This document shows, piece after piece, positions 1,055 through 19,401 of a stretch of 64,000 nt of DNA (position 1 is its first letter; the number at the start of each line of letters is the position of its first letter). Under the pieces are notes generated by a model. It was not told where the DNA came from and ran no database searches. It saw only the letters and a list, made by a program, of their open reading frames with translations. The position numbers and the translations under genes are program-made. The stretch is from Dehalococcoidia bacterium (GTDB lineage Bacteria > Chloroflexota > Dehalococcoidia > Plut-88900): NCBI GenBank assembly GCA_965207225.1, contig CBDBLV010000005.1:224001-288000 (forward strand), given 5' to 3'.

Positions 1055-2908
<1,854 letters not shown>

Positions 2909-3034
2909 TTACTGCTCGACCCTTCGACTCCGCTCAGGAATGACGGGGCACGGGGGAGGGGATGCGCTCAGTACCAAGGATGTATTCCCGATCGGAGTCG
3001 GGTGTGGGGTGGGGATGAGAGTTCAGGAGTAATT

Positions 3035-3090
3035 CTACATTTGTTCTTGACTTCTAAAACAGAACGTATATACTGTTAGCAAATCTGTTC
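3035..3090 (+). promoter_or_regulatory. Sigma70-type promoter of the capsid operon, overlapped by LexA-like boxes
   Basis: TTGACT (3047-3052), 16 nt, TATACT (3069-3074); degenerate GAAC-N4-GTTC sites CTACATTTGTTC (3035-3046), GAACGTATATAC (3062-3073), GCAAATCTGTTC (3079-3090); AAGGAGG RBS before 3107. Confidence 0.6.
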
Positions 3091-3106
3091 AGCTAAGGAG
3101 GAATTT

Positions 3107-3535
3107 ATGTCCGAAGAACCTACAGCCCAGGGCCCCGATCCCGAGTCGTCACCGGACGACGTTGAAGCCCCGATACCCGAGGAATCACCCCCGGAGGAGT
3201 CGCCGGAGATAAAGCGCCTGAACCTTCTGATTGCCGAGAAGGACGCAGAGATCAAAGGGATCAAGCAGCAGGTCGAACTGGCCGTGGGTAGATACCGCAG
3301 CGTTCTGATAGCCGGATCCCCAGAGCTGCCGGAAGAACTGGTGCAAGGAAGCACCATCGAGGAGCTGGACCGCTCCGTGGAATCGGCGAAGAAGATCGTC
3401 GAGAAGGTGGTGTCCCGCATCGAGGCCTGGGCCCCGGAGGCCCGGGTGCCGTCGGGGGCGCCTGCCCGGCGACCCGCTGATGTCTTGGGTCTCAGCGCCC
3501 GGGAAAAGATCCTGTACGCAATCAACAAGAGCTAG
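3107..3535 (+). CDS. Putative phage capsid scaffolding protein
   Basis: Acidic/Pro-rich N-terminus, coiled-coil middle, C-terminal LSAREKI helix; strong RBS; directly upstream of capsid gene. Confidence 0.65.
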   Translation: MSEEPTAQGPDPESSPDDVEAPIPEESPPEESPEIKRLNLLIAEKDAEIKGIKQQVELAVGRYRSVLIAGSPELPEELVQGSTIEELDRSVESAKKIVEKVVSRIEAWAPEARVPSGAPARRPADVLGLSAREKILYAINKS

Positions 3536-3568
3536 CCATAGCACACGAATAGCAAGGAGGAAAAACAT

Positions 3569-4459
3569 ATGGCATTAACGCTTACTGAGTCCGCAAAGCT
3601 GTCCAACGACGTGCTCCTGTCGGGAGTGGTCGAGACCATAGTCAACGAGAGTCCGGTGCTCCAGCACCTGCCTTTCATCGAGATAGTCGGCAACTCCCTG
3701 ACCTACAACCGGGAGAACGCCGCCCCCACCGTAGCCTTCTACGACGTGGGTGATGCCTGGGCCGAGTCCACGCCCACATTCACCCAGGTAACCGCCACTC
3801 TGAAGATCCTCGGGGGCGACGCCGACGTGGACAACTACGTGGCGGCGACCCGCAGCAACATCCAGGACCTGGGGGCCGCGGTAGTCGAGCTGAAGGCCAA
3901 GGCCGTCCAGCAGAAGTTCGACGACACGTTCATCAACGGAGACACCGACGACAACGCCAAGGCATTCGACGGGATAGACAAGCTGACGCCGGAAAGCCAG
4001 ACGGTAAGCATGGGTGACAACGGAGCGACCCTGACGCTGGACAAGCTGGATGAGCTGATAGACAAAGTGAAGACCGGCAAGCCCGACATGCTGATCATGA
4101 GCCGGAGGACCCGGCGCAAGATGAACTCGCTGGTACGGGACTCCGGAAGCGGGTTCCTGCAGACGGACCGCAACATGCTCGGCCGGATGGTCCAGTACTA
4201 CGACGGCGTGCCCATCGGGATCAGCGACTGGGTGTCCGACGAGCAGAGGGCCGGGACCAGCCGGGACAGCTCCACGGTTTACGCTGTGCAATTCGGCGAG
4301 GAAGGGGTGTCGGGGCTGACGGGGTCCTCGGGGCTGCAGGTCGAGCGGGTCGGGAGCCTGGAGACCAAGGACGCCACCCGGACCCGGGTCAAATGGTACG
4401 TGGCCGTAGCCCTCTTCAGCACGGTGAAGCTGGCAAAGCTCACGGGAGTGCGGAACTAG
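3569..4459 (+). CDS. Phage major capsid protein (HK97-like fold)
   Basis: 296 aa; SPVLQHLPF-x-GNSLTYNRE, GGDADVDNY, FINGD...AFDGIDKL, LDKLDELID, YDGVPIG features typical of tailed-phage MCPs; AAGGAGG RBS. Confidence 0.85.
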   Translation: MALTLTESAKLSNDVLLSGVVETIVNESPVLQHLPFIEIVGNSLTYNRENAAPTVAFYDVGDAWAESTPTFTQVTATLKILGGDADVDNYVAATRSNIQDLGAAVVELKAKAVQQKFDDTFINGDTDDNAKAFDGIDKLTPESQTVSMGDNGATLTLDKLDELIDKVKTGKPDMLIMSRRTRRKMNSLVRDSGSGFLQTDRNMLGRMVQYYDGVPIGISDWVSDEQRAGTSRDSSTVYAVQFGEEGVSGLTGSSGLQVERVGSLETKDATRTRVKWYVAVALFSTVKLAKLTGVRN

Positions 4460-4491
4460 CCCGGGCCCCGGGAGCAAGAGGGAGGCAACCC

Positions 4492-5112
4492 ATGACAACG
4501 CTAACCGACATCCGGGCCCGCGTCCGCACTGACCTGCACGATGAAGACGCCGGGGAGTACCGCTGGGCCAGCGCAGAGCTGGACCGGCACGTCTCCCACG
4601 CCCTCCGGGAACTCAGCCTGGCCGTACCCGTTGAGAGCAAGGCGAACCTGGAGGTCCCCGCCGGGTCACGGGACATCTCCCTTTCTTCCCTGGCCGGCCT
4701 GGTGCTCGTCGATTCCGTCGAGTACCCGGCCCGTCAGTTCCCGCCGGCTTACGTCGAGTTCCGGGTCTGGGGAGACACCCTGACCCTACTCACGGAACAG
4801 ACCCCGAGCGAAGGAGAAGAGGCCGCTGTCTACTACGGCAAGCTCCACACGCTGAACTACACGTCTTCGACGGTTCCGGAAGCGCTGGAAGACGTGCTGG
4901 TGGCGGGGGCGTCGGGCTACGCGGCGCTCAGTATGTCCGGGTTCACGATAAACCGGATCAATGCCGGCGGCGACGCAGTGTGGAGGGACTACATGGCATG
5001 GGGTCGGGAGCGGATGAACGTCTTTCACCGGGCGTTGGCGAAGCACGGGCGCGGGGGCAGGCTCAGGGCCCGACAGCTTCGCCGCGCAATGCCTGCGGCA
5101 GGGAACCGATAG
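4492..5112 (+). CDS. Putative head-tail adaptor/connector protein
   Basis: MTTLTDIRARVRTDLHD...RWASAELDRHV N-terminal pattern like phage adaptor proteins; immediately after MCP; GGAGG RBS before ATG 4492. Confidence 0.6.
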   Translation: MTTLTDIRARVRTDLHDEDAGEYRWASAELDRHVSHALRELSLAVPVESKANLEVPAGSRDISLSSLAGLVLVDSVEYPARQFPPAYVEFRVWGDTLTLLTEQTPSEGEEAAVYYGKLHTLNYTSSTVPEALEDVLVAGASGYAALSMSGFTINRINAGGDAVWRDYMAWGRERMNVFHRALAKHGRGGRLRARQLRRAMPAAGNR

Positions 5113-5113
5113 C

Positions 5114-7105
5114 ATGAGAGCTTTGTCCGACGCTCTGTTAAAGGCGCAAAGATCGGCGTCGTCCCGTCCATGGGTCAGGGTGGAGGCGCTGGACCGGATG
5201 GCGGGTATAGCCCGCCTCCGGTTCCGGCGCCTCCATACCGGATCCGAGTCCGAGGGGCCTCACGCTCTGACGATCCCCGCCGACGGGAGCCTCGTCCGGG
5301 CCCGCATCGATCCATCAAATGGCCACATCCTCTACTACCAGCGGGTTGCCATCCCCTCTTCGGCCTCCGACTTCACGCGCTGGATCTCCTTAGGCGCCGT
5401 TTCCAGGGACGCAGAGGTGGCGCTGTGCTCCAGGGGGTCAGAAGTCTTGCTGTTCTCGGTATCCACCAACCGACGCACAATCTACGTCCGCACCAGCACC
5501 GACAGCGGAGCGACCTTTGGGCAACCCGTCTACGTCACCACCGCCTTTTCGACGGTTGCATCGCTGGCCGCTGCTTTCAAACCCGACGGCACGGCTCTGC
5601 TGCTTTACGTGATTGGGAACGGACTCTACGCAATTCGGCGCTCCGCCGGGAGCTGGGGATCGACCCGCATCTGGACAAACGCCCTGTCCCGCATTGACGG
5701 TGTGGCTGCCTACTTCAACAACGATTGGAACGTGGTGGTCACGGGTCGGGATGCCGGGAACAGCAAGAATGGGGTGTGGGGAACGATGCTCGGAGACGGA
5801 GCGGACCGGGCCGCAGGTACATGGTCGGGGTTAAAGGTCATCACGGAGTCGAGACCCGGTCAGGCCCTGGACTACAGCGCTCCTTCCCTTGACAGGCCGG
5901 ATGTGGACAGGCTTTTCTTCACCGAGCAGGTCACGGGGCAAGGCGGGCATAACAGACCCTTTTTCACCTTTACGACGCCCTCGACATCCTTTTCGGACAG
6001 CCTCTGGCGGGAGCCCGCAGCCTTTGAATTCGACTCGGCCTATGGCATGGCCCTGGCGCACACATCCGACCAGGCCTGGCTCTCGACGGCCAACGGCGTT
6101 TGGTCTGCGCCCATTAATCCCCCACCCCTGGACCTGAGTGAAAACATTGTCTCGGTGAACGGCAAGGAATCAACTAGGTCTGCCAGATGGCAAATCGAGC
6201 TGCGCAACGACGACGGACGGTATTCGAAACCAGGAGAAGGCAATTTGGAGCTCTTGGCCAAGGGTTCGGAGGTGAGGGTCGGGCTGGGTTACGTGACTGG
6301 GCAAGGCAGGCAGTCTTCTCCATGCTCTCCTGTCTGGATAGAAAGCCTGGAGCATCGCCGCGTTGGAGGAAGCTCCACCCTAGTAGTCCATGCTACGGGT
6401 GCCTGGGGGCTGCTGGACTGGCAGCAGGCGCGCCGGGAGCGAACGTGGGCCGTAGGAGATGCGACCGTATTCCAGATACTTAGGTCAGTCCTCGCCCGGG
6501 CGGGCTACGAATGCACGAGCCTGTCCTCCAACTTCCTGCTGGACAACCACCGGCCCGAATTCCTGGTCGAGGAGTCGGAGCCGCTGGACATGGTGGTCGA
6601 GCGGCTCATGGCCTACATGCCGGACGTGCTGCTGACAGCATCGAGAGGCGGCTTCACTCTACGAACACCCTCGGCCGACGAGGAGACGACATATATGTAC
6701 GGCTCTGGACATGGGATCCGGGAGGGGAACTACCTGGACCCGGTCCCGAGGCACAGCCGGGCAATAGTCTTTGGGTCGGGGCACACCAGTGATGTGCCGG
6801 ACTGGTCGGACTTCCCCGACCTCTTTGACAGGCCCATCCACGTCCACGACGAAAGCCTCGACACCCGGGAGAAGACCGACGCGCGGGCCTTTGCCGAGAC
6901 GCGGCGGATGGCAATCCACACCGCTAGGGGAAGCATCACCCTGCGCGTCAACGCCGGCCAGGAACTCTATGACGTGATAGAGGTGACGGACACGGCAGTC
7001 GGCCTCACTTTGGCCAACTACCGGGTGCTTGGGCTGGAGACGCGTTACGTAGCCGGGCCACGGGGGTCTCGGTACGACCAGGTGATCCGGTTGGGCGGGG
7101 TTTAG
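5114..7105 (+). CDS. Putative virion tail/nozzle-like protein (beta-propeller with Asp-box, hub-like C-terminus)
   Basis: 663 aa, beta-rich, Asp-box STDSGATF; starts 1 nt after adaptor stop; ELRNDDGRY and GQELYDVIEVTD segments resemble tail hub proteins. Confidence 0.5.
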   Translation: MRALSDALLKAQRSASSRPWVRVEALDRMAGIARLRFRRLHTGSESEGPHALTIPADGSLVRARIDPSNGHILYYQRVAIPSSASDFTRWISLGAVSRDAEVALCSRGSEVLLFSVSTNRRTIYVRTSTDSGATFGQPVYVTTAFSTVASLAAAFKPDGTALLLYVIGNGLYAIRRSAGSWGSTRIWTNALSRIDGVAAYFNNDWNVVVTGRDAGNSKNGVWGTMLGDGADRAAGTWSGLKVITESRPGQALDYSAPSLDRPDVDRLFFTEQVTGQGGHNRPFFTFTTPSTSFSDSLWREPAAFEFDSAYGMALAHTSDQAWLSTANGVWSAPINPPPLDLSENIVSVNGKESTRSARWQIELRNDDGRYSKPGEGNLELLAKGSEVRVGLGYVTGQGRQSSPCSPVWIESLEHRRVGGSSTLVVHATGAWGLLDWQQARRERTWAVGDATVFQILRSVLARAGYECTSLSSNFLLDNHRPEFLVEESEPLDMVVERLMAYMPDVLLTASRGGFTLRTPSADEETTYMYGSGHGIREGNYLDPVPRHSRAIVFGSGHTSDVPDWSDFPDLFDRPIHVHDESLDTREKTDARAFAETRRMAIHTARGSITLRVNAGQELYDVIEVTDTAVGLTLANYRVLGLETRYVAGPRGSRYDQVIRLGGV

Positions 7106-7164
7106 GCAGCCGGATCTGCGGCAGCCCAACCGAATACCTTCCATCGTATGCAGCCGATGTCCCT

Positions 7165-7701
7165 TTACTCAGACCCCAGAACGCCCCCCGTGATTATAAG
7201 AACGATTACGTACAGGACTACCCAGGGTATCGCCGAAACAATTACCACGAAGAAGGCCCGCAGAGTCGAGGTGTAGTCCAAGGCCTGTCGGACGCCCACT
7301 ACCATGGCAGCGACACTCCAGACGAAGGCCACCAGGACTATTAGGCCTCCTACGGCCGGGATGAAAGACAATACGTTGAACAGCCCCGGGGTCTGAGCGA
7401 AGCCCGTGCACCGGGCAAGCTGGCCCCAGTTGGCTTCCGTATCGGCCGTCTTGCATATGGTTGCTCCGATAACATATGTAACAAGAGCCCACAGGGCCCA
7501 GCCGATTACTCCCAAGACCACACCGGCAACCACCGACCGCACCACGTCGATTTCTTCGCCGCTCAGCAGCTCGCCAACCAGGCTGGCGATGGTTACCATG
7601 ACCACGATGGCGAGGGCCTGGAGGGTTGCGCCTCTATCCCTTTCTACATCCTCGTAGGTGTGGGAGTCCAATCGGGCGGCGCCTAACATTCTGGCTAACA
7701 T
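7165..7701 (-). CDS. Yip1-domain membrane protein
   Basis: MLARMLGAARLD..YEDVERD..ATLQA, GFAQTPG, VRQALDY; about 5 TM segments; likely start 7701. Confidence 0.8.
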   Translation of the reverse strand: MLARMLGAARLDSHTYEDVERDRGATLQALAIVVMVTIASLVGELLSGEEIDVVRSVVAGVVLGVIGWALWALVTYVIGATICKTADTEANWGQLARCTGFAQTPGLFNVLSFIPAVGGLIVLVAFVWSVAAMVVGVRQALDYTSTLRAFFVVIVSAIPWVVLYVIVLIITGGVLGSE

Positions 7702-7935
7702 TTCATCACCTCGATTCTGGGAGTGCGCACTTTTAACTTTCAGCCCAAGTTTGAACCTTGGAGGTTGGGCTGTGGGGCGACCAGCGGAAGGGCGCGAATG
7801 GGAATCATGTCTTAGACGGTAATGATAGCGGACTCGGGGGCCGGCGGGGAGGGGGTATGTTGACAGTGTAGGGAGTCGGGTGAAAAATAGCCTCCGCGCA
7901 GGACATCCCTTGAACCCTCTTTCACGCGGACTTGA

Positions 7936-9159
7936 TTGCAAACCACCCCTGAAAGCCCCCAACTCCGACGCTGGACAGTAGTTGCCTCCCTCACTTCCTG
8001 TGTAGGCACGTCCCTCAGCATCGTCTTCATCATCGGGATACTGCTTCCTGAAATCTCGGAAGAGTTGGACCTTTCGCCGCTGGCCCAGGGTTGGCTGGGG
8101 TCATCCGTCCTCATAGCCAACCTGATATTCTGCATCCCCGTTAACCTGGTCACATCCAGGTTCAGGCCGTGGCGGACGGTGACGCTGCTGTTTCTCGGGG
8201 TAACGGGCTCGGCGCTGCTGCAGAGCTGGACACCGGTGCTCGGGGCGCTGTTTATCGGTCGGGTGGGCTCCGGGCTCTTTTTCACCTCAACCCAGTCCCC
8301 CCGAGCCCTGCTCATCCAGCAATGGATCCCCGGACACCGCATCTCCTTCACCAACGGCCTGGCCTTTGCAGGCATAGACCTGATCATGGGCATTGGTTTC
8401 CTGGTCACGCCCCAGTTCCAGGCACTGGCCGGGGGATGGCGGGAGACGTTCTTCATCTGGTCGATGATCCTGCTGGGCCTGACGGTGGTCTGGATGATAG
8501 TCGGGGGGGAGAGGGTCACGGAGGAGTACGCGACCCGGGCCCGGGCCGAAACCTCGAGCCCCCTGAACGCCCTGCGCAACTACCGGCAGCTGTGGATCAT
8601 GGGGCTGGGGATGGGGGGCTCGATGGCGGCTCAGGCGGGGTTCCAGAACTTCTGGCCGACGCTGGCGGAGGATAAGCTGGGTTTCGGGGCGGGGTTCGTG
8701 GGGTTGGCCCTGGGAGCTACCACCTTCGCCGCCGCCCCGACCGATTTCCTGGCTAACGCCATTCCCGGCCTGATCAGGCGCCGCACCCTGGTCCTTTCGG
8801 TGTGCAGCATAGCATCGGTAATCTCCCTGACCGGCATGGTCTACGCCACCTCCGCACCCCTGGCCCTGGGTCTGGCCGTGTTGAAGGGGTTCTCCTTCGC
8901 CTTTTTCCCCGTGCTGATGATCATGGTGTTCCTGATCCCGGGCATCAGGCCGAGAGAGATAGGCATAGGAATGTCGTTCATGGAGACGTCGATCTGGGGA
9001 GGGTCGGCGATCGGGCCGCTGCTGGTCGGGGGTCTGCAGCAGGCGACGGGAGACCTTCAGACAGCCCTGTTCATCAACGGGCTTCTGCCGTCGATACTCC
9101 TAGTGTCGGCGGGGATGCTGTACGTGAGGGAGCGGAGGGCGGCTTTGCAGTCGGGATGA
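7936..9159 (+). CDS. MFS transporter
   Basis: 407 aa, about 12 hydrophobic segments, GWRETF, GPLLVGGL motifs. Confidence 0.9.
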   Translation: MQTTPESPQLRRWTVVASLTSCVGTSLSIVFIIGILLPEISEELDLSPLAQGWLGSSVLIANLIFCIPVNLVTSRFRPWRTVTLLFLGVTGSALLQSWTPVLGALFIGRVGSGLFFTSTQSPRALLIQQWIPGHRISFTNGLAFAGIDLIMGIGFLVTPQFQALAGGWRETFFIWSMILLGLTVVWMIVGGERVTEEYATRARAETSSPLNALRNYRQLWIMGLGMGGSMAAQAGFQNFWPTLAEDKLGFGAGFVGLALGATTFAAAPTDFLANAIPGLIRRRTLVLSVCSIASVISLTGMVYATSAPLALGLAVLKGFSFAFFPVLMIMVFLIPGIRPREIGIGMSFMETSIWGGSAIGPLLVGGLQQATGDLQTALFINGLLPSILLVSAGMLYVRERRAALQSG

Positions 9160-9225
9160 GGGTCGGATAACGGCTTGCGACGAGGAGAAGGCAACCCGGC
9201 AACAAAAGGAGCGAATGACCTGGCG

Positions 9226-9435
9226 CTAATTCAGCAGCACAGCCGTCGTCACCCCGCTGGCAACAGCCGCAAGGATCGACCCGATAATCCCAATGCTGAC
9301 CCACAGCAGCTTGTCCAGTTTGGATTCAAGCTTGTCAATCCGACCTTCCAGCCGGGTGAAACCACTTTCCAGTTGACGATGGCCCTCAATTAAGGCGCCA
9401 ATTGTTTGAGCAGTAGTAGTATCGACAGTAGTCAT
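9226..9435 (-). CDS. Small coiled-coil protein with C-terminal TM anchor
   Basis: RLEGRIDKLESKLDK followed by hydrophobic tail; AT-rich upstream region. Confidence 0.65.
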   Translation of the reverse strand: MTTVDTTTAQTIGALIEGHRQLESGFTRLEGRIDKLESKLDKLLWVSIGIIGSILAAVASGVTTAVLLN

Positions 9436-9648
9436 GTGTGTCAGTCTCTAGGTGGATTGCTCATAGAATAATCAAGTCAATACATTGTGTCAAATTGTTG
9501 TATTTATTGACCCATTCGAGACGAGGCATGATTTACTTGTAGGGGACTTTGGCATCCTCCCAGTCTTAAGGTCCTAAGCTCCCCATCCCCCATGCTACAA
9601 TTACCCCCGTTCCCGACTCGGCATTTATCGCACATTTCGGAGGCACAC

Positions 9649-10431
9649 TTGAGGCTTAAGGATAAGGTCGCGATTGTCACGGGGGCCACGGCGGGGATGG
9701 GTCGGGCGGCGGCGGAGCTTTTTGCCCGGGAAGGGGCCAGGGTGGTGATGTGCGGGCGCAGGAAGGAGTTGGGGCAGGAGATCATCGACCTGATAAAGGG
9801 GTGGGGTGGGGAGGCGACCTTTGTTACAGCGGATGTGGCCCGGGCCGAGGACGTGAAGCGCGTCGTCGACACCGCAGTCTCGACATACGGCAGGCTGGAC
9901 GTGCTGTTCAACAACGCCGGCATCAACGAGCACACCGAGGGCGACCCCGACAAGGAGCCCGTCGAAATCTGGGACAGGATCATCGACGTCAACCTGAAAG
10001 GCACGTTCCTCGGCATGAAGTACGCCATCCCGGAGATGCGCAAGGCCGGGGGCGGTTCCATAATCAACAACTCCTCGGTCAACGACTCCCAAGCCGACAT
10101 GGTGTCCATGTCCTCCTACCACGCCTCCAAGGGCGGGGTCACGGCCCTTACCAAGAAGGCCGCCGTGGAGTATGCCTCCGACAACATCCGGGTCAACGCG
10201 GTGAACCCGGGGCCCATCGCTACGGAAATGGTGGACATACCCTGGGACAAGCTTACCGACCCGGACATCGTCGCCGAGCGCAAGACCAAGCAGCCCCTGA
10301 ACCGGATGGGCCACCCCATGGACGTAGCCTACGCAGCGCTCTATTTCGCCTGCGAGGAGTCGGCGTTTGTGACGGGGGCGACATTGCTGATAGACGGCGG
10401 GCAGTCGGCGGCATACCGGGACCCGGTGTAG
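9649..10431 (+). CDS. Short-chain dehydrogenase/reductase (SDR) paralog 1
   Basis: TGATAGMG, NNAG, YHASK, IRVNAVNPG; TTG start at 9649 after GGAGG gives 260 aa like its paralogs. Confidence 0.95.
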   Translation: MRLKDKVAIVTGATAGMGRAAAELFAREGARVVMCGRRKELGQEIIDLIKGWGGEATFVTADVARAEDVKRVVDTAVSTYGRLDVLFNNAGINEHTEGDPDKEPVEIWDRIIDVNLKGTFLGMKYAIPEMRKAGGGSIINNSSVNDSQADMVSMSSYHASKGGVTALTKKAAVEYASDNIRVNAVNPGPIATEMVDIPWDKLTDPDIVAERKTKQPLNRMGHPMDVAYAALYFACEESAFVTGATLLIDGGQSAAYRDPV

Positions 10432-10456
10432 CAGAGAAAAGTAACCGGAGAAGAAC

Positions 10457-11239: not shown

Positions 11240-11284
11240 CGACAGCGATTCCTGATCAAATTCCACTACCGGGAGAAGCACATC

Positions 11285-12067: not shown

Positions 12068-12111
12068 CCGTCCGATCCTTCTATATTTACCTCATTCTTT
12101 AGGAGGAGCGC

Positions 12112-12897
12112 ATGAGACTTGCAGATAAGGTTGCCATAGTTACCGGGTCCACAGCGGGGATTGGAAGGGGCGCCGCGGAACTCTTCGCCAAGGAAGGGGC
12201 CAAGGTGGTGGTCTCGGGCAGGACTGTCGAGGCGGGAGAACGAGTTGCAGAAGGGATTCGGGCGGGGGGCGGGGAGGCAATTTTCGTCAAAGCCGACGTT
12301 TCACTCGCAGCCGACGTCCAGCGGATTGTGGAAGAGACAGTCGCCGCATACGGCAAGCTGGACGTGCTCTTCAACAACGCGGGCACTGGGAGCAAGGGCC
12401 TGACTGCCGACGAGTCGGAGGAGAGTTGGGACCGCTGTATTACGATCAACCTGAAAAGCGTCTTCTTGGGCATAAAGTATGCCGTGCCGGAGATGATCAA
12501 AAACGGCGGCGGCTCCATAGTCAGCAACGCCTCCATGTGGGGTGTCACCGCCAGCCATCGGTGCGCCGGCTCCTACGTCGCTTCCAAGGCGGCGATCATA
12601 GGGCTCACCAAGAAGGCGGCGCTGGACTATGCGAAGCAGAGGATACGGGTGAACTGCATCTCCCCCGGCGACATCGGGTTTGTGGGCATGGAAAATGACG
12701 AGGACTACTGGACTCGACCCGACATTGTCGAAGACTTCGAGACCCGCCAGCCCTACCCCCACATGGGCACCCCCGAAGACTGCGCCTACGCCGTTCTCTA
12801 TCTCGCCAGCGATGAGTCGGCATTCGTCACGGGGACCAACCTTGTGCTGGACGGCGGCATGACCATTGCGGAGATCCTGGCGGGGGGTCGGGGGTGA
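12112..12897 (+). CDS. SDR paralog 4 (more divergent)
   Basis: TGSTAGIG, NNAG, YVASK. Confidence 0.95.
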   Translation: MRLADKVAIVTGSTAGIGRGAAELFAKEGAKVVVSGRTVEAGERVAEGIRAGGGEAIFVKADVSLAADVQRIVEETVAAYGKLDVLFNNAGTGSKGLTADESEESWDRCITINLKSVFLGIKYAVPEMIKNGGGSIVSNASMWGVTASHRCAGSYVASKAAIIGLTKKAALDYAKQRIRVNCISPGDIGFVGMENDEDYWTRPDIVEDFETRQPYPHMGTPEDCAYAVLYLASDESAFVTGTNLVLDGGMTIAEILAGGRG

Positions 12898-13071
12898 AGG
12901 GCCGAGGTCCTGCCAATAGTGTCTAAGCGGCAACTACCGACCCTCGTCCAACATCCCATCTAACAAAGCGAGTTGGAACAAACCTGACTCTCTTTACGTC
13001 TCCACTAGCGTGACCTGAGGCCATGGCGCGCTGTTTTGCCGGTGCGACGCAGGCAATCGTATACTGCCCGA

Positions 13072-13683
13072 ATGTCGCCTCCCGGTAGGACAGCGGAGCC
13101 GGAAGAGGTCCTCGTGGCCCGCAGCCGGGACGGGGATGTCGACGCCTTCAACCGGATCGTGGATATGTACCAGAGGCCGATGTACAACCTGGCGCTCCGA
13201 ATGCTGGGCGACGCCCCCGCTGCAGAGGATGCCACCCAGGACGCTTTCATCTCGGCCTTCCGCAACATTGGCCGGTTCAAGGACGGGAGCCTGAAGTCCT
13301 GGCTCTTCACCATTGCGGCAAACCGGTGCCGGGACATGCTCCGGGCCCGCAGCGTCCGCCCGGCCGAGTCCCTGGACTCGGAGGAGACCACCCTCGACCC
13401 CCCATCCCGCACAGAGTCCCCCGAAGACTACGCCGTCAGGCGAGAGATGGGCCGAAGCATTCAGCAGGCCCTTGCTACTCTCCCTCACGACCAGCGCCTG
13501 GCCGTAGTGTTGATCGACGTGCAGGGCCTGGCCTACGAGGAAGCTGCAGAGGTCATAGGAATTAACGTAGGCACTGTGAAGTCGCGGCTGAGCCGGGGTC
13601 GGGGGCGGATCAGAGATTTGCTGAGGGAGAAGCCGGGGATTCTGCCAGCCCGGTATGGGAGCCAGGACCGAGAGCGTGATTGA
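13072..13683 (+). CDS. ECF RNA polymerase sigma factor
   Basis: [56 protein letters not shown]; TATACT 6 nt before ATG suggests leaderless mRNA. Confidence 0.95.
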
Positions 13684-14641
13684 GTTGCTAAAAAGCTTTT
13701 TCGACAGGGGGCACGGGCGCTTCCTGGGGATGCTGTCGGACTTCATCGATGGCGAACTGGAACCCGGGGCCCGGGCGGCGCTGGAAGAGCACCTGGTCGC
13801 CTGTTCGGCCTGCAGCGAGGAGCTGGAGTCGCTGCGGGCGACGGTGCTGATGCTCCGCCGGATGCCGGAAGTCGAGGCGCCGCGCTCGTTCAGGCTGGCA
13901 CCGGCATCCGTGAGCGAAATCTCACCTCCTCCCGAGAAGCCGGTCTTCCAGTGGGCGATGCGGGTGTCGACGGCCGTAGCTGTGGTGGCCTTCACGGTTA
14001 TGGTGGCGGGCAACGTATCAGGGCTTTGGGATGGGGGAGGGTTGAGTGAGGAGGGTCCAGCCGCGTCGGCCTTCGATGCGGAGATGGCTTCTGATTCGCC
14101 GGACTTCATACCGACTTCCACACCCGCAGCTATGATGGATGAACCCGAAGAAATGATGGCCCCCGAGCCGGACATGCCGCCCCGCTCCACGCCCGTGATG
14201 GAGCGGGCAGCCCCCGAGCCCACCGCAATGCCAGAGGCTACGATGGACGAAATGGAAGAAGCAGCCGCGGACGAACCCGCGCTGGACGCGGCAGCAGCTA
14301 TTGCTGAGGACGATAGCCTCGTTGCCGAGGCTGCACCCGAACCCACCGGCACTCCCATGCCCGCGCCTGCAACTGCTCCCATTCCGACTCCTCTACCCAG
14401 CCCAACCCCGACACCCGCGCCTACGGCCACTCCGACCCCAACGCCCGAACCGACACCGGCGCCTACTGCAACACCGGCACCCGAGCCTACACCCTTGCCC
14501 TGGACAAGCACCGATATAGAAGTGGACGATGAGGGAAGAGAGGTGATAACGGGGTTGACTATCGGGTTGGGGATATTGGCTGGTGCGCTGGGCATCGGGA
14601 CGATTTACCTGACGCTGAGGAGGCGTCGGGGGGTGGGGTAG
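13676..14641 (+). CDS. Zinc-binding (zf-HC2) membrane anti-sigma factor
   Basis: HLVACSAC (HxxxCxxC), TM helix, Pro/Glu/Thr-rich extracellular part, second C-terminal TM followed by RRRR; overlaps sigma gene. Confidence 0.9.
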
Positions 14642-14693
14642 GGGGTGACACCAACGGAGAGAGACAAGGTGAGGCAGTAGGTTAGGATTCTCT

Positions 14694-15185
14694 CTAGTGA
14701 TGGTTCGGGGTTGAACTCTCGGCAGTGTCAAGGTCACGAAGAACTTCTTCGTAAGCCTCAACACGGGAGGAGTCCCCGGCTTTGCGCGCCTTGTCCAATT
14801 TTCCTCGTATGACGGCTCTGAGCTCCGCCCGTTCCTGGGCCCGACCCTCAGCCCGGCCCTCGGCCCGACCCTCAGCCCGACGTTCTTCCCGTACCCTTTG
14901 CAGCCATCTTTCGGTCAACACCATGATGACACTCCTTGCTTCTGCCGCAATCATGCTAATTGTAGCAGAGCCTATTGCCAGGGAACCCGCGTGGCCCAAA
15001 ACCGCTGTCAGAATTGCTAAGACAGAATTTCTTTGACTGACTCCCTCCAGGGACTCATTTGTCGCAGCTACCGACATTCCTGCGATGAACAGAAGGAAGA
15101 AGGCCGTGAAATAGAACCTCTTTGTGCGAGAGTCGACGGTCCATATGGACTCCCGCTCATTATTGGTGGTCACCTGTCCGTACAC
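14694..15185 (-). CDS. Hypothetical membrane protein with RAEG repeats
   Basis: Two hydrophobic segments then RAEGRAEGRAEGRAQERAE. Confidence 0.6.
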   Translation of the reverse strand: MYGQVTTNNERESIWTVDSRTKRFYFTAFFLLFIAGMSVAATNESLEGVSQRNSVLAILTAVLGHAGSLAIGSATISMIAAEARSVIMVLTERWLQRVREERRAEGRAEGRAEGRAQERAELRAVIRGKLDKARKAGDSSRVEAYEEVLRDLDTAESSTPNHH

Positions 15186-15472
15186 TAGTGCGGCCTCACG
15201 GTCCCAGGGTTAATGCAGTGTTCGACCCAGGCTTCACCGCAGCTTTGGGACTCCTCAGATTAAATGTCATGGGCTGGATAGTTAGACACCATCGTATTAC
15301 TTTCAGGGGCTAGAAGAATTCTTAGACACGAATACGTGGAAGAAACAGACCCTCAAGAGAAGCAATAATAGCACTCTAATGTAACATGCTCAAGCACATG
15401 CCAGGATTGTCCGATGACAATTTCCACAGAAATGTGGGATGGGGAACAAGCAGCTATCCTAAATATCACCTT

Positions 15473-16768
15473 TCACTGAGAGGAAGTCGGGGAGGGGGCC
15501 TCTTCCTTGACGAGGGTGAGTTCGCGGTCCGGGTCCTGGATGCCGAGGTTGGACATGGCGCGGCGGCGGCTGTGGATGCCAGAGCGGACGAGGGTCTCCT
15601 CGTCCTGGACTAGGCGGCTGCGGTCCTGGGGAAGGATGGGGCCCCAGAGGACTTTCGGGCGGACGGGGCCGAAGTCGAGGCCCTGGTATCGCTCAAGGAC
15701 CTGGAGGATCATGCGGGCCCGACGCTCGTAGGCGGAGGTGCGGATGAGGCGCTTGCGGCGGACCTTCTGGACGAGGGGGTTCAGCTCTATGTCCAGGGCC
15801 ACACCGGAAAGGCCACGGGCATTGTCGCCGAAGCTGGGTCTCGGGGATTCGGAGAGGTCATGGAGGGCGCGATAGACGAGGTCGATGAACTCGGTGTGGA
15901 GGCGGACGCCGCCGCCCTGGAGCAGGTCCAGGAGGTAGGCGCGGGAGCTTTCGGGGACCTCCCACACGGCCCCGGGCTGCACGGTGATGTCGCTGGCGTC
16001 CTCTATGTTTTCGAGCACGGCTATGGGGTTGCCGGACAACTCGAGGATCATCGAAAGCTGGGAGAAGGCGCGGTTCAGCTCCCGGGCGGGCTCCATGATG
16101 GCAGGCACGTCGGATGCGCCCCAGAAGCGCTTGGGCTCCCGGATGTTGGGGAAGACGACGAAGGGGATGAAGCCGTAGGGGTTGGCCCGACTCTCCTGCA
16201 TGGCGTTGTCTATCCAGATTTCGAAGGTGTCTGCGGTCCAGACTTCTACGATGGTGGAGTCGGGGCGGTTGCCGCCGGCGGAGGAGGCATGGGCCCCTGA
16301 ACCGTAAAGAAGCTCGACCTCGTCGGCGGAGAGCTTGTAGCGGCTGGCGATGCGCCATACGCGGTTGACGTCGTCGCCGACCCACCAGGCGAAGATTCCC
16401 TGCACGTCGGGGGCGGAGACGCGGACACGCTCTTCTTCGGCATCCCAGGTGACCTTGTAGGCGGCGTCGCCGAGGACAGCGGCGTCGAGTTCGGTGTCGA
16501 AATCGAGCTGCTGCAGGTCGTTGTCGGCGTAGACGGCGGCGAGGGCCCGGCTCGCTTCCTCGGCCCTGCGGGCGGCTTCATCGGAAGAGTCGAAAGGCTC
16601 GACCGTGAAGCCGATGTCGGCCATGAGGTAGGAAGTTATCTTGTCGATGAAGGAGCGGGCGTAGTTGAAGGTGAGGCGTCGCTCCTTGCGGCGGGAGTGG
16701 TCGAGCCACTGTCCGCCGGAGTAGAAGTCGAGGTTTTCGGAGTAGGAGCGGAGGCGGTCGGGGTCCAT
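15473..16768 (-). CDS. Phage portal protein (SPP1 gp6-like)
   Basis: LDFYSGGQW, LTFNYARSFIDK, NPYGFIPFVVFPN, GASDV..I, SGVALDI motifs; start may be further upstream (in-frame ATT at 16804). Confidence 0.88.
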   Translation of the reverse strand: MDPDRLRSYSENLDFYSGGQWLDHSRRKERRLTFNYARSFIDKITSYLMADIGFTVEPFDSSDEAARRAEEASRALAAVYADNDLQQLDFDTELDAAVLGDAAYKVTWDAEEERVRVSAPDVQGIFAWWVGDDVNRVWRIASRYKLSADEVELLYGSGAHASSAGGNRPDSTIVEVWTADTFEIWIDNAMQESRANPYGFIPFVVFPNIREPKRFWGASDVPAIMEPARELNRAFSQLSMILELSGNPIAVLENIEDASDITVQPGAVWEVPESSRAYLLDLLQGGGVRLHTEFIDLVYRALHDLSESPRPSFGDNARGLSGVALDIELNPLVQKVRRKRLIRTSAYERRARMILQVLERYQGLDFGPVRPKVLWGPILPQDRSRLVQDEETLVRSGIHSRRRAMSNLGIQDPDRELTLVKEEAPSPTSSQ

Positions 16769-16861
16769 GCGTTCGATTTGCTGGGGGATTGTCAGGTTTG
16801 TAATGGTTTTCTCTCTTTCTGTGTTTTTGTGAGCAAATGAGGTCTTTTGATTATTGTTTCA

Positions 16862-17250
16862 CCCTCACCCCAGCCCTCTCCCTTAGGGCCTTTAAGGGAG
16901 AGGGGGAGAAATAAACAGAGGCATACGCCTGCGCCTCGGCGCAGGCGTATGCCTCTAGTTTGGTACTGGGGGGAACGGGGGAGGGCCACTCCACCCACTG
17001 AAACGATTGGTGTGTCGGAAGATGCGGTGCACTATTCGATATACCTTTCCCTGCGGGGAAGGGAACCCTCACCCCCTTGATCCCCCTCTCCCTTAGGGCC
17101 ATTAAGGGAGAGGGGGAGAAAAGAACAGAGGCAGACGTTGGCGCTTCAGCGCCAACGTCTGCCTCTAGTTCAATACTGGGGGGAAGGGGGAGGGGGAGCC
17201 AGAGGCCACCCCTGGCTGCCCCAGATTCCTCGCGGGGCATCGGAATGACA
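16862..17250. repeat. Two ~204-bp composite palindromic units between terminase and portal
   Basis: CCCTCACCC..CCCTCTCCCTTAGGGC..TTAAGGGAGAGGGGG at 16862 and 17066, each followed by a long hairpin (GAGGCATACGCCTGCGCC-TC-GGCGCAGGCGTATGCCTC; GAGGCAGACGTTGGCGC-TTCA-GCGCCAACGTCTGCCTC). Confidence 0.85.
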
Positions 17251-17268
17251 TGATGAGGGGTGGTTGTT

Positions 17269-18663
17269 TTATTCATAACCTTGGCGGAGGCGGCCGGTGG
17301 CGCGGCGGGGGATGTAGTGGGAGGCGTGGACGAGGAGGGCCAGGGAGGTGAGGAAGTCGTCGTGGCCCTGGGAGGGGTCTACGAAGAAGTTGATGGTCTG
17401 GTTGGGCCTGACTACGCTCCTTGCTTTCGAGATCTGGGACCAGAACTCGGTGGATTCGGGGGAGCCGTCGGGCTTGTAGGCGTGGAGCCTGCCGGAGTTG
17501 ATGGCGGCGAGGAGGTCGAAGCCGAGGTCCGACTTGCTGCGGGCGGTGAAGTTGAAGGGTTTGACGATGGAGGTTCCCAGAGATTTACGCAGGAAGGCGG
17601 CGACGCCAGCGCCAACGCCTGTGGCGTCGACGACTACCCTGCGGCATTTCCACACGTTTTTGAGAAGGTGAACGAGGGTCGAGTAGATCTCCGTGTGGGG
17701 TTTCCCAGTCCACCAGTGGTGCTCGACCACACTGAGGGAGGGGTTTTTCGATCCGAGGCCGTCGTCGGCGAGGCGAAGCTCGGCGATGGTAAGGACGGTG
17801 GAATCGCTTAAGGTCCGGGTGGCCGAAGTCCCGGTATGGCCAGAGGATTCTACATCGCCGGCGAGGTCTATGCCGGCGACGTAGGTTTGCCCCTGTAGGG
17901 GGGCTTTTGTGCGGCTGTGGTTGCCCTGAAGGAGGGCGAGCCGCGTATTGTCCAGGAACCTTCCATCGTCGGAAACGGGGGTAAGGCAGTACTGGGAGAG
18001 GAACAGGGGATGATCGCTGCCGAGGCGCTGCTGTTCGGCCTCGACGAAGCGCTGGTATTGAGGGTTGTGTTTAGCTACGGCCTGCCAGTCGAACTCGAAG
18101 TGGCGTTGAATGCCATCGGAGCGTTGAAGCTCGAGGTTGGACTGCTTGACCTGCTCAAGCAGCGAGTTTTCTTGCCAGGCGGTGCCGTAGTGGACGGTGG
18201 TGACGTTGGTGGAAGCGCCCATAGGCATGAAGTCGCGGTTGAACTTGTCGGGAGAAACGTCCTGGGACTCGTCGATTTCGAGGAGGATATCGGCGGTGTT
18301 GCCGACGACGTTGCTGGTGGGATGGGCGCTGAGGAAGAGCTGGCGGGCATGGCCGACGCGCAGACAACGGCCATTTTCGATGAGGTAGCAGCGGGAGAGG
18401 CCGGCATGGTCGAAGGTCTGCCGGAGGCGGCGGAAGCTGATGTGGGCCTGGGGGTGGAAGGTGGGGGCGGCCTTCACGGCGGCGCCGCCGGTGGGGGCGT
18501 AGGCGAAGAGGGCGGCGGTCTCGACGTGGGCGGACAACTCGTTCTTGCCGCCCTGGCGGGCGATCATGACGGAGAAGGATAAGCCCTTACTATCGCGGAC
18601 ACTCTCGATGATGGCGCGCCCGATCTCGATCTGGTAGGGCCAGAGGTAGTTGAGGTCTACCAA
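17269..18663 (-). CDS. Phage terminase large subunit
   Basis: Walker A-like ARQGGKNE, Walker B LLEIDESQD, RNase H-like nuclease motifs YVAGIDLAG, VVDATGVG, HDDFLTSLAL. Confidence 0.88.
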   Translation of the reverse strand: MVDLNYLWPYQIEIGRAIIESVRDSKGLSFSVMIARQGGKNELSAHVETAALFAYAPTGGAAVKAAPTFHPQAHISFRRLRQTFDHAGLSRCYLIENGRCLRVGHARQLFLSAHPTSNVVGNTADILLEIDESQDVSPDKFNRDFMPMGASTNVTTVHYGTAWQENSLLEQVKQSNLELQRSDGIQRHFEFDWQAVAKHNPQYQRFVEAEQQRLGSDHPLFLSQYCLTPVSDDGRFLDNTRLALLQGNHSRTKAPLQGQTYVAGIDLAGDVESSGHTGTSATRTLSDSTVLTIAELRLADDGLGSKNPSLSVVEHHWWTGKPHTEIYSTLVHLLKNVWKCRRVVVDATGVGAGVAAFLRKSLGTSIVKPFNFTARSKSDLGFDLLAAINSGRLHAYKPDGSPESTEFWSQISKARSVVRPNQTINFFVDPSQGHDDFLTSLALLVHASHYIPRRATGRLRQGYE

Positions 18664-18881
18664 GGGGTGACCTCGGCGATGCCGAAGACGAACTGGAGCA
18701 TGGCGGCGATCATGACGAAGAAGAAGAGGGTGTTGATGCGACCCTTAATCTCGGCGACCTGCCGCTGGAGCTCTGCGAGGCGCATTTCGAGGACGGCGTC
18801 GAAGGTGGACTCGGGCTTGATAGCCGGAGGCGCGGGGGCGGGGGGCTTGCGGTTGAAGATGTTTATGGGGTTCTTAAGCAT
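18657..18881 (-). CDS. Small coiled-coil plus C-terminal TM protein (holin/XhlA-like candidate)
   Basis: LEMRLAELQRQVAEIKGRIN followed by one TM helix; overlaps both neighbours in the terminase operon. Confidence 0.6.
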   Translation of the reverse strand: MLKNPINIFNRKPPAPAPPAIKPESTFDAVLEMRLAELQRQVAEIKGRINTLFFFVMIAAMLQFVFGIAEVTPW

Positions 18882-19287
18882 TGGTCTTTCCAGGAATCAG
18901 GTCCATGCCGAGCTCCAGGGAGATGTCTTTGATGACGGTGGCGATGCCTTCCGCGGCATCTTCAGGGGAGTCCTTGGAGACGCGGTTCTTGGCGGCGTAG
19001 GCGCGGACGATGAGCTCGATGGTCTTGAGTATGCGGGGTGTGTTGTCGCAGTTCTTATCCGTGAGTTCCTCATGCAGGAGGTCCTTGAGGCGCATCCTGA
19101 GGATGCCGATCTCCGGGTCGGGGTGTTGGATCTCCTGAGCGCTGACAAGCTTCTTCCTTGCAGCTGAGGTGAATACAGGGAAGTAGAAGGAGACACCCGG
19201 GGCGGCGGGCTTTTGGGCCTGGTCGCCCCGGGGCTCCTTAGACACGGGCGACGGGTCGGGTTGGGGGTTGCGCGGGCGGTTGGTCAT
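18874..19287 (-). CDS. Putative terminase small subunit
   Basis: 137-aa helical protein, first gene of terL-portal operon (EIGILRMRLKDLL); positional inference. Confidence 0.5.
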   Translation of the reverse strand: MTNRPRNPQPDPSPVSKEPRGDQAQKPAAPGVSFYFPVFTSAARKKLVSAQEIQHPDPEIGILRMRLKDLLHEELTDKNCDNTPRILKTIELIVRAYAAKNRVSKDSPEDAAEGIATVIKDISLELGMDLIPGKTNA

Positions 19288-19371
19288 TCGGCAGTCCTTT
19301 CAGCCAGTTCGGCAGTTCAATTTTTTCGGCGATGCAACGGGTCCGACGGGTCGGGGCCCGGGTCGGTAGGT

Positions 19372-19401
19372 ATGATAGGACTAATGTACGCAGTGTGTCA
19401 A
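19372..19401 (-). promoter_or_regulatory. Sigma70-type promoter of the terminase/portal operon with LexA-like box in the spacer
   Basis: Minus strand TTGACA (19396-19401), 18 nt, TATCAT (19372-19377); GTAC-ATTA-GTCC (19378-19389) lies between them. Confidence 0.6.

Follow-up and report, generated by a model that had tools for sequence, protein, structure and literature searches.

A vertically inherited phage head and packaging gene set in Dehalococcoidia as a candidate gene transfer agent

A 64-kb window of DNA (the whole stretch analyzed here, G000:C5:224001-288000) from a Dehalococcoidia bacterium, whose genome (G000) comprises 4.03 Mb in five contigs, harbors two operons that together encode the head and DNA-packaging machinery of a tailed phage. 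The element is probably a fixed, chromosomally inherited remnant of a tailed-phage morphogenesis system, kept by purifying selection and likely employed in the transfer or release of host DNA in the manner of a gene transfer agent (GTA). A preliminary description of the window had proposed a domesticated system rather than a decaying prophage. This reading is supported by the single-copy state of the element, trees congruent with the species tree, low ratios of nonsynonymous to synonymous substitution rates (dN/dS), and the absence of a linked integrase.

Organization of the head and packaging modules

Examination of the open reading frames (ORFs) of the window confirmed the two operons originally described: the named ORFs of both modules all exist and are all open, their protein families agree with a head and a packaging apparatus, and the modules lie on opposite strands, separated by ~8.4 kb of host genes. 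Their components are as follows.

3107-7105, + strand: module A, encoding scaffold, epsilon15-type capsid protein, SU10-type adaptor, and a 663-aa hub
3107-3535, + strand: scaffold-like coiled-coil protein, 142 aa (cluster c5), from position, composition, and homologue matches
3569-4459, + strand: major capsid protein, epsilon15 gp7 type, 296 aa (phrog_212, PF05065, PF20911, NF045672)
4492-5112, + strand: head-to-tail adaptor, SU10 type, 206 aa (PF24175; ORF readable from 4393)
5114-7105, + strand: predicted tail hub of gp27/Mu gp44/VgrG-like fold, 663 aa (predicted structure, Foldseek, VIA-align)
15473-19287, - strand: module B, encoding TerS-like protein, small membrane protein, TerL, and SPP1-type portal
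15473-16768, - strand: portal, SPP1 gp6 type, 431 aa (PF05133, phrog_64)
17269-18663, - strand: predicted large terminase TerL, 464 aa, TTG start (fold match)
18657-18881, - strand: B2, 74 aa, with a C-terminal transmembrane or hydrophobic helix, translationally coupled between terS and terL
18874-19287, - strand: TerS-like protein, 137 aa, from position and a weak terS PHROG match of a homologue

Pfam scans of the 67 ORFs of the window revealed no integrase, repressor, replication, tube, tape-measure, or lysin families, in agreement with the earlier statement that integrase, replication, tape-measure, and tube genes are missing from the 64 kb. A search of the whole genome identified five tyrosine recombinase matches, the nearest ~640 kb away on the same contig and the others farther off or on other contigs, so that no integrase is linked to the element. 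The single PF05065 match in the genome is the capsid gene itself, and PF10145 (tape measure) and PF04630 (tube), the only tail families searched genome-wide, gave none. The modules were also correctly described as host-like in GC content (0.632 and 0.627 compared with 0.606 for the genome, with a standard deviation of 0.029 among 4-kb windows); GC at third codon positions is host-like too, and the contig that carries the element (2.08 Mb) also carries rpoB. The locus thus combines phage-derived structural and packaging genes in the chromosome with the absence of integration, replication, and lysogeny genes that is typical of GTAs. An intact or inducible prophage would differ from it, as no integrase, repressor, replication, lysis, or full set of tail genes lies beside the head genes and no border repeats were found.

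Distribution across Dehalococcoidia and Chloroflexota

The presence of the element was examined in a set of 41 related genomes, including G000, with matches accepted at E <= 0.001. The capsid gene was detected in 30, portal in 34, TerL in 33, and the hub, in one copy, in 31 of these genomes. All four genes occur together in 27 and are all missing from six (G026, G027, G029, G032, G034, and G039; completeness 71-98%). Six of the eight genomes with mixed results are assemblies of 50-340 contigs, and the contig of G003 stops inside terL, exactly where the portal gene is expected next.

An even sample of the class (401 genomes of completeness >= 90% from 207 genera; capsid at E <= 1e-30) contained the capsid gene in 227 genomes and 126 genera, one positive, G569, being an unpublished genome. 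With few exceptions, a positive genome has a single match, which bears out the single-copy presence across Dehalococcoidia that was looked for. Presence follows families, with the gene in 9/9 genomes of f1, 21/23 of f6, 31/34 of f16, and 21/34 of f103 and near-absence from f22 (0/34), f24 (0/11), f29 (0/10), and f35 (1/11).

Within a sample of the phylum, 49 of 401 genomes had a capsid match; 23 of them are not members of the class. Identity is 46-54% in 20 of these 23, and the match is weak in the other three. The three outside loci inspected again placed the genes in host context and in different orders: scaffold-portal-capsid flanked by GNAT/ABC genes and type ISP restriction genes, terL-portal-adaptor-scaffold-capsid, and a lone capsid gene near dnaK. 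Domestication may therefore be older than the class, or it may have happened repeatedly. Loci from outside the class are L162 (G192:C1:1632600-1652599), L163, L164, and L165. A scan of named genome records yielded 99 relatives, and the best 80 of the 99 are all metagenome-assembled genomes (MAGs) titled Dehalococcoidia, Dehalococcoidales, Dehalococcoidaceae, Chloroflexota, or Chloroflexi, bar three titled Chloroflexia, Anaerolineaceae, and Thermoflexus.

Vertical inheritance of the element

Capsid, portal, and rpoB were fetched for the 25 of 41 genomes with near full-length matches for all three. G021 was excluded because it gave no rpoB match, and G009, G013, G014, and G023 because of partial genes; a coverage filter of >0.85 removed G017 (portal) and G022 (capsid), leaving 23 genomes. 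Capsid and RpoB identities to G000 were 97/98% for G008, 96/95% for G007, 94/94% for G005, 90/90% for G001, and 90/88%, 89/88%, and 90/88% for three further genomes of the genus. Other members of the family gave 74/75% (G010) and 73/74% (G011), and other families 51-74% for capsid and 57-64% for RpoB.

Quick maximum-likelihood trees of capsid plus portal and of RpoB for the 23 genomes have 11 of 20 splits in common, compared with a mean of 0.18 and a maximum of three in 2000 label shuffles, so that the expected agreement of gene trees with the species tree was largely observed. Among the common splits are those of the genus, of both its subclades, and of the family, as well as four that define deep pairs or groups. 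In a more careful tree, the genus and the family received 100/100 support and the pair (G024,G025) 94/98. Element and RpoB distances are correlated with a Mantel r of 0.88, which none of 5000 permutations reached. Synonymous divergence (dS) between G000 and G007 was 0.45 for capsid, 0.79 for portal, and 1.06 for hub, compared with 0.81 for rpoB, 0.82 for the major facilitator superfamily (MFS) transporter gene, and 0.57 for eno. Since dS of the element is similar in magnitude to that of host genes, the copies are as old as the species splits. Long-term vertical inheritance is therefore strong within the family. At the level of the class it is supported by family-wise presence and absence and by the four deep splits, not by distance correlation.

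It is highly improbable, considering these results, that an ordinary temperate phage or mobile satellite family reintegrates repeatedly and that the window represents a chimeric assembly or a prophage split not long ago. In favor of such a phage, the proteins are of the kinds usual in phage heads, and IMG/VR carries 18 related loci as viral contigs, although 16 of them are <=7.7 kb. However, the element is single-copy, its identity tracks that of RpoB down to the species level, and its trees are congruent with those of the host. Flanking host genes are syntenic within families, housekeeping genes like plsY lie inside the cluster, and integrase and replication genes are missing. A chimera is further contradicted by the location on the rpoB contig and by the same inverted gene order in four genomes, three of which are closed in a single contig.

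Purifying selection on the structural genes

Selection was estimated by the Nei-Gojobori method for eight pairs among seven genomes of the genus, with G003 left out. The ranges of dN/dS were as follows.

capsid: 0.04-0.15
portal: 0.05-0.19
hub: 0.13-0.20
adaptor: 0.16-0.51
scaffold: 0.16-0.36
TerL: 0.23-0.37
B2: 0.18-0.39
TerS: 0.8-0.97 within the genus, the exception to purifying selection
rpoB (host): 0.03-0.08
eno (host): 0.06-0.17
MFS (host): 0.05-0.12

The values for capsid, portal, and hub are far below 1, indicating purifying selection on the structural genes. The expectation of dN/dS well below 1 thus held for capsid, portal, and TerL.

Head proteins and a tail hub with an inserted propeller

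The capsid protein matched phrog_212 (5.7e-75), PF05065 (1.8e-11), and PF20911, and its score against NF045672 (MCP_gp7_epsi_15; 1e-62, 212.4 bits over residues 4-294, cut-off 75) assigns it to the epsilon15 gp7 family. Portal is similarly assigned to the SPP1 gp6 family by PF05133 (2.7e-17, 63.3 bits over residues 24-424, cut-off 25.5) and phrog_64 (2.6e-30). Among cultured phages, the nearest reach at most 42.5% identity for capsid (293 records) and 25% for portal (13 records), and the Chloroflexota copies are far closer to each other than to these. The adaptor matched PF24175 (SU10_adaptor) at 6.9e-7 and, over residues 2-145, at 4.5e-7. Its true start is probably 4492 rather than 4393; GAGGGAGG stands before 4492, and relatives of the adaptor are ~210 aa long. 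No family in Pfam or PHROGs matched the scaffold protein of the window. Its tentative assignment draws on its composition, on its position directly upstream of the capsid gene in 64 of the 99 related loci, and on a homologue in L077 with weak matches to head-scaffolding phrog_233 (4e-4) and phrog_1793 as well as to coiled-coil families.

Four loci in MAGs titled Dehalococcoidaceae or Dehalococcoidales (L076, L077, L084, and L088) have three extra genes between capsid and adaptor, encoding a 154-aa protein, a 226-aa Laminin_G_3 lectin-like virion protein (phrog_8510, 3.6e-19), and a 76-aa protein, and also a 106-aa gene ahead of the hub. Of the versions seen, that of G000 is therefore the most reduced.

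The last gene of module A had been called tail-like. The relation to tails was borne out, and structure prediction refines it to a putative gp27/Mu gp44-type hub with a lectin- or sialidase-like propeller. The AlphaFold model built from 39 homologues has a pLDDT of 92.7 and a pTM of 0.88, and a Foldseek search against the PDB returned baseplate hubs (E 9e-16 to 1e-12). Outside residues ~28-337 the predicted fold resembles T4 gp27, Mu gp44, the MuSo2 43-kDa protein, and VgrG-like contractile-injection proteins. VIA-align gave Z scores of 24-26, with 301-319 residues aligned at a root-mean-square deviation (rmsd) of 2.8-3.5 and spanning residues 3-663, as would be expected of a hub fold. Matches of the model in BFVD are annotated "tail protein", "protein D", and "Mu gpP". 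Residues ~28-337 are modeled as an inserted six-bladed beta-propeller, which VIA-align likened to fucose-binding lectins (Z 26, rmsd 2.7, 258 residues) and sialidases (Z 24-25). No tube gene follows the hub.

Packaging module and exchangeable terminase cassettes

TerL had no Pfam match, matched PHROGs at 7.5e-5, and in a PDB sequence search reached a best E of 0.27 (terminase nuclease domains). Its model from 14 homologues, with a pLDDT of only 71.9, nevertheless had large terminases as all of its top Foldseek matches in the PDB (HK97 6z6d at 7e-13, Sf6 gp2, T4 gp17, D6E, and G20c nuclease; E 7e-13 to 1e-9). The predicted fold, comprising an N-terminal ATPase and a C-terminal RNase H-like nuclease, thus marks TerL as a large terminase, and the suggested fold comparison bears out the original assignment. 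The ATPase motifs reported for TerL are also present: its alignment conserves a P-loop-like RQGGKNE and LLE(V/I)DESQD with its DE motif, which we take to be Walker A and B.

B2 had no match in Pfam, PHROGs, or NCBIfam, and homologues of the same layout occur in other families. The TerS-like protein consists of a variable basic, proline-rich N-terminus and a helical core conserved in the alignment; it had no match of its own, and sequence searches yielded nothing meaningful. Position, composition, and the weak match of a homologue to terS phrog_1889 (5.8e-5) hint at a small terminase subunit.

A second terS-B2-terL set is located in G000 at C1:233071-235072 (locus L110 10072-12076), between PEPCK/UbiA and PQQ-propeller/YidC/Jag genes and with no other phage gene nearby. 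Its identity to the window set is 77% for TerL, 81% for B2, and 32% for TerS. In the genus, the number of full-length terL copies per genome ranges from one to four and is mostly at least two; further copies in G001-G008 are in L167-L178. The stand-alone cassettes are surrounded by housekeeping genes, and a divergent terS (30-54% identity between cassettes) accompanies each extra copy fetched.

Fragments of terL covering residues ~200-375, with a translated identity of up to 61%, were also observed inside composite non-coding repeats of G000, at C4:456243-457418, C5:1617003-1618472, C2:254359-255789, C3:315299-316774, C5:1894624-1896294, C5:1307607-1309421, and C4:332434-334116. The terL stretch is tandemly duplicated in some of these and is flanked by hairpin repeats. 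Other genomes of the genus contain 8-31 terL matches of all kinds each.

Break-up of the cluster and a young inversion

Clustering of ORFs from the 99 capsid loci, many of which are short, identified a recurrent order of terS, B2, terL, c10, portal, scaffold, capsid, small genes, adaptor, hub, and c6. The small genes between capsid and adaptor are lineage-specific, and some lineages have one small gene before the hub. The families were present in 99 (capsid), 83 (adaptor), 65 (hub), 64 (scaffold), 43 (c6), 38 (portal), 23 (c10), 14 (terL), and 14 (terS) loci. In the genus coded g35, all seven genomes sampled are closed, measure 1.7-2.1 Mb, and show the order c10-portal-scaffold-capsid-adaptor-hub-c6.

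Host genes inserted into the cluster differ by lineage. A sigma/anti-sigma pair is found in family f1; HcyBio, NIL-ferredoxin, GT2, and PlsY genes lie between portal and scaffold in three loci; and luciferase-like oxidoreductase, aminotransferase, and PALP enzyme genes lie between scaffold and capsid in L040, L048, L058, and L065, the same trio standing upstream of the capsid gene in L042. The extracytoplasmic function (ECF) sigma factor and its anti-sigma factor were considered as a regulator of the system and set aside, since they occur between portal and scaffold only in family f1 and other lineages have unrelated genes there. The pair is conserved at this place only within the family and is convergent with the portal operon.

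Capsid and portal are on one contig in 21 genomes. They lie <=5.1 kb apart on the same strand in 13, 10-11 kb apart on opposite strands in G000, G005, G007, and G008, and >=31 kb apart in G001, G016, G017, and G037. In the colinear genomes G002, G004, and G006 the order is terS to portal, the 163-aa gene, anti-sigma and sigma on the other strand, scaffold to hub, MFS, and the short-chain dehydrogenase/reductase (SDR) genes. The split in G000 is therefore one young inversion of the block from scaffold to the SDR genes, common to four of the eight genomes of the genus. No repeats were found at its borders (2780-3130 and 12880-13060). The inversion foreseen as a possible cause of the split is thus real, with four genomes sharing it and three colinear, but what it split was not an ordinary prophage.

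The gene c10, located between terL and portal in relatives, encodes a Cys-rich protein of ~110 aa that combines the motif Y-x-D-x-G-C-x5-C-L-x-C-P-x4-C with a helix-turn-helix at its C-terminus, and matches phrog_836 (late transcriptional activator, 6e-6) and weakly Sigma70_r4_2. It was identified in 12 relatives (G001, G002, G004, G006, G007, G010, G011, G016, G017, G025, G030, and G037). The c6 product (~70 aa) is encoded 3' of the hub in 43 of the 99 loci, and in seven loci of the genus c6 is not next to the hub. Matches to PDB 4jiw_D (E 0.074) and, in 2 of 20 members, to PF18352 (E 0.12) faintly suggest a spike OB-fold of gpV/gp5 type.

In G000 the place of c10 in the terL-portal spacer is taken by two repeat copies identified by blastn.

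16871-16995: hairpin-repeat copy
17051-17260: hairpin-repeat copy

The repeat is ~105-135 bp long and palindromic, with a 19-bp stem and a T-rich tail, and is terminator-like. A blastn search gave 366 matches in G000, >120 per repeat core, and G008 likewise holds copies at the c10 place. A 141-aa ORF (16851-17276) between terL and portal was rejected as a gene, as it consists of the two repeat copies. The translated repeat gives spurious ORFs such as ...SPSPLKALRERGIKGVRV.

Promoters and possible common control

Promoter-like sites precede both operons.

3047-3074, + strand: sigma-70-like promoter TTGACT-16-TATACT before the scaffold operon, 10/12 matches
19372-19487, - strand: two tandem sigma-70-like promoters before terS, 11/12 matches each

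The same terS promoter pair stands before the C1 cassette (G000:C1:232745-232984), and the -35 word of the scaffold promoter, TTGACTTC, is common with promoter P1 of both terS cassettes. AAGGAGG ribosome-binding sites precede the scaffold and capsid genes, and B2 and terL each overlap their own upstream gene.

Where genomes of the genus carry c10, AAAGTGACAY-N7-TTGAC-N17-TATTAT or TATATT stands at the start of both the terS operon and the scaffold operon. The GTGACAY-N7-TTGAC box is rare in the sister genera: G010 contains three, of which two mark the beginning of the element's two operons, and G011 also contains three, one before the scaffold gene. These positions may reflect common control of the modules. 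The box occurs 40 times in G001, 67 in G002, 59 in G003, 42 in G004, 64 in G006, and 15 in G007, compared with one in G000 and none in G005 and G008; a reversed-pattern control gave 0-1 per genome. These counts parallel the presence of c10, the state of which in G003 is hidden by the contig end in terL. The link is weakened by the facts that the c10-less genomes form one clade and that the box rides on a multi-copy repeat. The box as a mark of a c10 regulon is thus a lead rather than a result. G000 carries the variant reading GCCGCACATTTGCTCTTGAC at 18 places, for example C5:701035 and C4:508398. The promoter-bearing repeat has multiplied in the genus, its variant in G000 being AAAGCCGCACATTTGCTCTTGACAC...CTATCAT.

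Points against a maintained system and the possibility of decay

Several observations weigh against a maintained GTA-like system, in the class or in G000. At the class level, the capsid gene was not detected in 174 of the 401 genomes, and the hub gave no match in G011, a closed genome. When family f1 was represented by a single genome (14 genomes), the Mantel r fell to 0.17, which 1243 of 5000 permutations reached. The drop arises because the families are roughly equidistant from each other, and deep congruence therefore rests on the four shared splits only. The TerL tree matches neither the species tree nor portal linkage within the genus. The portal-linked TerL of G000 and G008 fall in different groups, though all other genes of this pair are 95-98% identical, and the portal-side cassette has therefore been exchanged among paralogues. 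Damaged copies were also encountered, in which sequencing errors are possible: capsid, portal, and hub are fragmented with stops in G014 (G014:C23:183390-188379), terL and portal contain one in-frame stop each in G010 (G010:C1:890839-893977), and the hub is in five pieces in G017 (G017:C1:1909909-1913564).

Within G000, neither c10 (also not found in G005 and G008) nor c6 was found. Terminator-like sites lie between terL and portal on the - strand (17167-17126 and 16957-16916), and the portal gene has no evident ribosome-binding site. The strong ribosome-binding sites or tight overlaps claimed for all genes are thus confirmed for scaffold, capsid, B2, and terL and not for portal. In the closest pair, G000-G008, dN/dS is somewhat raised compared with other pairs (adaptor 0.51, scaffold 0.36, hub 0.20, and capsid 0.12, against 0.05 for rpoB). 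Together, the losses of c10 and c6, the repeats, and these ratios leave room for relaxed function in the sub-lineage. The 22 sequencing runs in which the stretch occurs include no RNA run. Finally, no tail tube, fibre, lysis, or internal-protein genes were identified, which leaves release and DNA delivery unexplained.

Such features could indicate that the G000 cluster is a defective prophage remnant in decay, the ORFs of which are intact only for lack of time since the loss of a regulator and a spike gene. The losses, the terminator-like repeats, the split by inversion, the raised dN/dS of G000-G008, and the decay in G010, G014, and G017 are all in keeping with this explanation, which we nonetheless consider quite unlikely. 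None of the eight genes is interrupted in the four genomes with the inversion (G000, G005, G007, and G008). The dN/dS of capsid, portal, and hub is 0.12-0.20 in the youngest pair and 0.04-0.19 in G000-G007 and G000-G005. In addition, both modules keep strong promoter-like sites and ribosome-binding sites, and at the class level the set is as conserved as RpoB.

Neighboring genes

The surroundings of the modules contain the following features.

2-418, - strand: gap, left of module A
1055-2812, - strand: eno, left of module A
7165-15185 (gap between modules 7106-15472): host genes outside the system, comprising Yip1, MFS, four SDRs, the sigma pair, and a 163-aa gene
13036-13683, + strand: ECF sigma factor, between the modules
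13655-14641, + strand: zf-HC2 anti-sigma factor, between the modules

These coordinates agree with the initial placement of module A beside eno and gap. The 163-aa protein encoded between the modules is a membrane/coiled-coil protein. A 533-aa ORF (12994-14595, - strand) was rejected as a gene because it is the shadow of the sigma/anti-sigma pair. A gene for a CAP-domain protein lies to the right of module B, and the remaining 44 kb of the window contain metabolism and transport genes according to Pfam.

The longest ORF of enolase has 585 aa, with Enolase_N beginning at residue 160; translation probably starts farther downstream, unless the protein carries an N-terminal extension of an unusual kind. 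Eight acyl-CoA dehydrogenase paralogues occupy 15 kb (27306-42444, - strand), interspersed with PIN_3 genes (30418-30957 and 32507-32926), a DUF559 endonuclease-like gene (35297-35815), and a TM2-domain gene. The ORF of myo-inositol-1-phosphate synthase (44945-46462, - strand) shows a weak YdaS-like helix-turn-helix at residues 8-43, under the Pfam cut-off.

Discussion

The evolutionary behavior of the element matches that of gene transfer agents, although it is not a member of the Rhodobacter capsulatus GTA (RcGTA) family. RcGTA-type agents, including CcGTA of Caulobacter, likewise consist of structural and packaging genes and are not known to include integration or replication genes. They also resemble the element in class-level vertical inheritance, purifying selection, dispersed parts, and a TerS without a recognizable DNA-binding domain. 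Such agents are treated in the abstracts of PMC5721377, PMC11841831, and PMC9632790. In contrast, the Dehalococcoidia element is of independent origin, belongs to a different phylum, and has an epsilon15-type capsid with a scaffold and an SU10-type adaptor. The hub directly follows the adaptor, no tube, tape-measure, terminator, or fibre genes were found, and one genus has several terS-terL cassettes per genome. Tube, tape measure, distal tail, and megatron of the RcGTA type are all absent among the families conserved in the 99 capsid loci.

The head module itself is related to those of epsilon15/BPP-1/SU10-like podoviruses and Ab18/PaMx11-like siphoviruses, as the capsid protein falls in NF045672 and the adaptor in PF24175. 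The capsids of Clostridium phage FA70 and Pseudomonas phage Ab18 are those with up to 42.5% identity. Ab18 shares the order terS-terL-portal-scaffold-capsid-adaptor and continues with head closure, neck, terminator, tube, chaperones, and tape measure, none of which is present here, nor is the rest of a phage genome. The predicted fold of the 663-aa protein outside the propeller is that of the T4 gp27, Mu gp44, P2 gpD, and VgrG hubs; here, a six-bladed propeller is inserted near the N-terminus, and tube, sheath, and tape-measure genes are missing alongside. Capsid-forming phage-inducible chromosomal islands (cf-PICIs) similarly have their own terminase, portal, capsid, and connector genes and are not known to encode a tail. 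They are, however, mobile and patchily distributed, with integrase, regulation, and replication genes; the element has no linked integrase, regulator, or replication module, is inherited vertically and family-wise at its locus, and encodes a hub.

No report of a GTA or of a conserved head cluster in Dehalococcoidia or Chloroflexota was found in the literature searched, the supplements of PMC12507015 and 10.64898/2026.09.15.751708 aside. The latter, the IME1 preprint, deals with a different, filamentous element without tailed-phage genes, and the former only cites a GTA paper.

The gene content suggests how a particle could be formed. The system would have been endogenised before the radiation of most Dehalococcoidia. 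From the roles of their families, scaffold and capsid protein would form a procapsid on the portal, one of several TerS/TerL cassettes would fill it with DNA by headful, and the adaptor would close the filled head. The hub, presumably a trimer, may then dock on the adaptor without a tail tube and produce a short-tailed, podovirus-like stub. The reason for proposing such a tube-less stub is that the set has no conserved companion gene for a tube, tape measure, terminator, or sheath. The propeller may bind or cleave an envelope glycan of the recipient cell, and the B2 membrane protein could, speculatively, aid release. Cultivated Dehalococcoides are not known to have peptidoglycan, the lack of which would make a long tail and a lysin less necessary. 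A particle of this kind would be unable to propagate itself, and its most likely use would be the transfer or release of host DNA.

A domesticated and selected system, or single proteins of it, could also serve another role: discharging DNA into a matrix, eliminating competitors, or acting as a defence or decoy against related phages. Its heads could also be completed by helper-phage tails, as in capsid-forming satellites. The evidence from inheritance and selection is identical for these roles and silent on what the particles do. The missing tube, fibre, and lysis genes fit them, and several terS-terL cassettes per genome recall satellites that redirect packaging. On the other hand, a hub with a predicted glycan-binding or -cleaving propeller, kept with the head genes in 31 of the 41 relatives, fits an adsorption device of its own better than tail stealing. 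PADLOC defence models gave no match among the 11 proteins scanned, and integrase, primase, and excision genes are not linked. We therefore regard such roles as unlikely in comparison with the GTA-like use of host DNA. About equally doubtful is a far broader proposal, in which an ancient class-wide, perhaps phylum-wide, Chloroflexota GTA would combine a glycan-binding hub, joined directly to the portal adaptor with neither tail tube nor tape measure, with several exchangeable terminase cassettes in one genus. The hypervariable TerS of these cassettes would choose different DNA, and the dispersed terL-derived repeats of that genus could act as extra packaging starts.

Known GTAs come from a handful of lineages. 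Among the Dehalococcoidia are organohalide respirers that serve in bioremediation, SAR202-like groups abundant in the sea, and symbionts of sponges. If true, an independent GTA fixed across this class would add a new phylum, and it would also point to a means by which genes are exchanged in organisms that are difficult to cultivate and for which genetic tools are lacking. The element misleads virus-prediction pipelines, as illustrated by its IMG/VR entries, and its tube-less hub and multiple terminase cassettes are structural and mechanistic oddities. Finally, a capsid protein conserved like RpoB in genomes down to ~1-2 Mb argues for a real cellular role.

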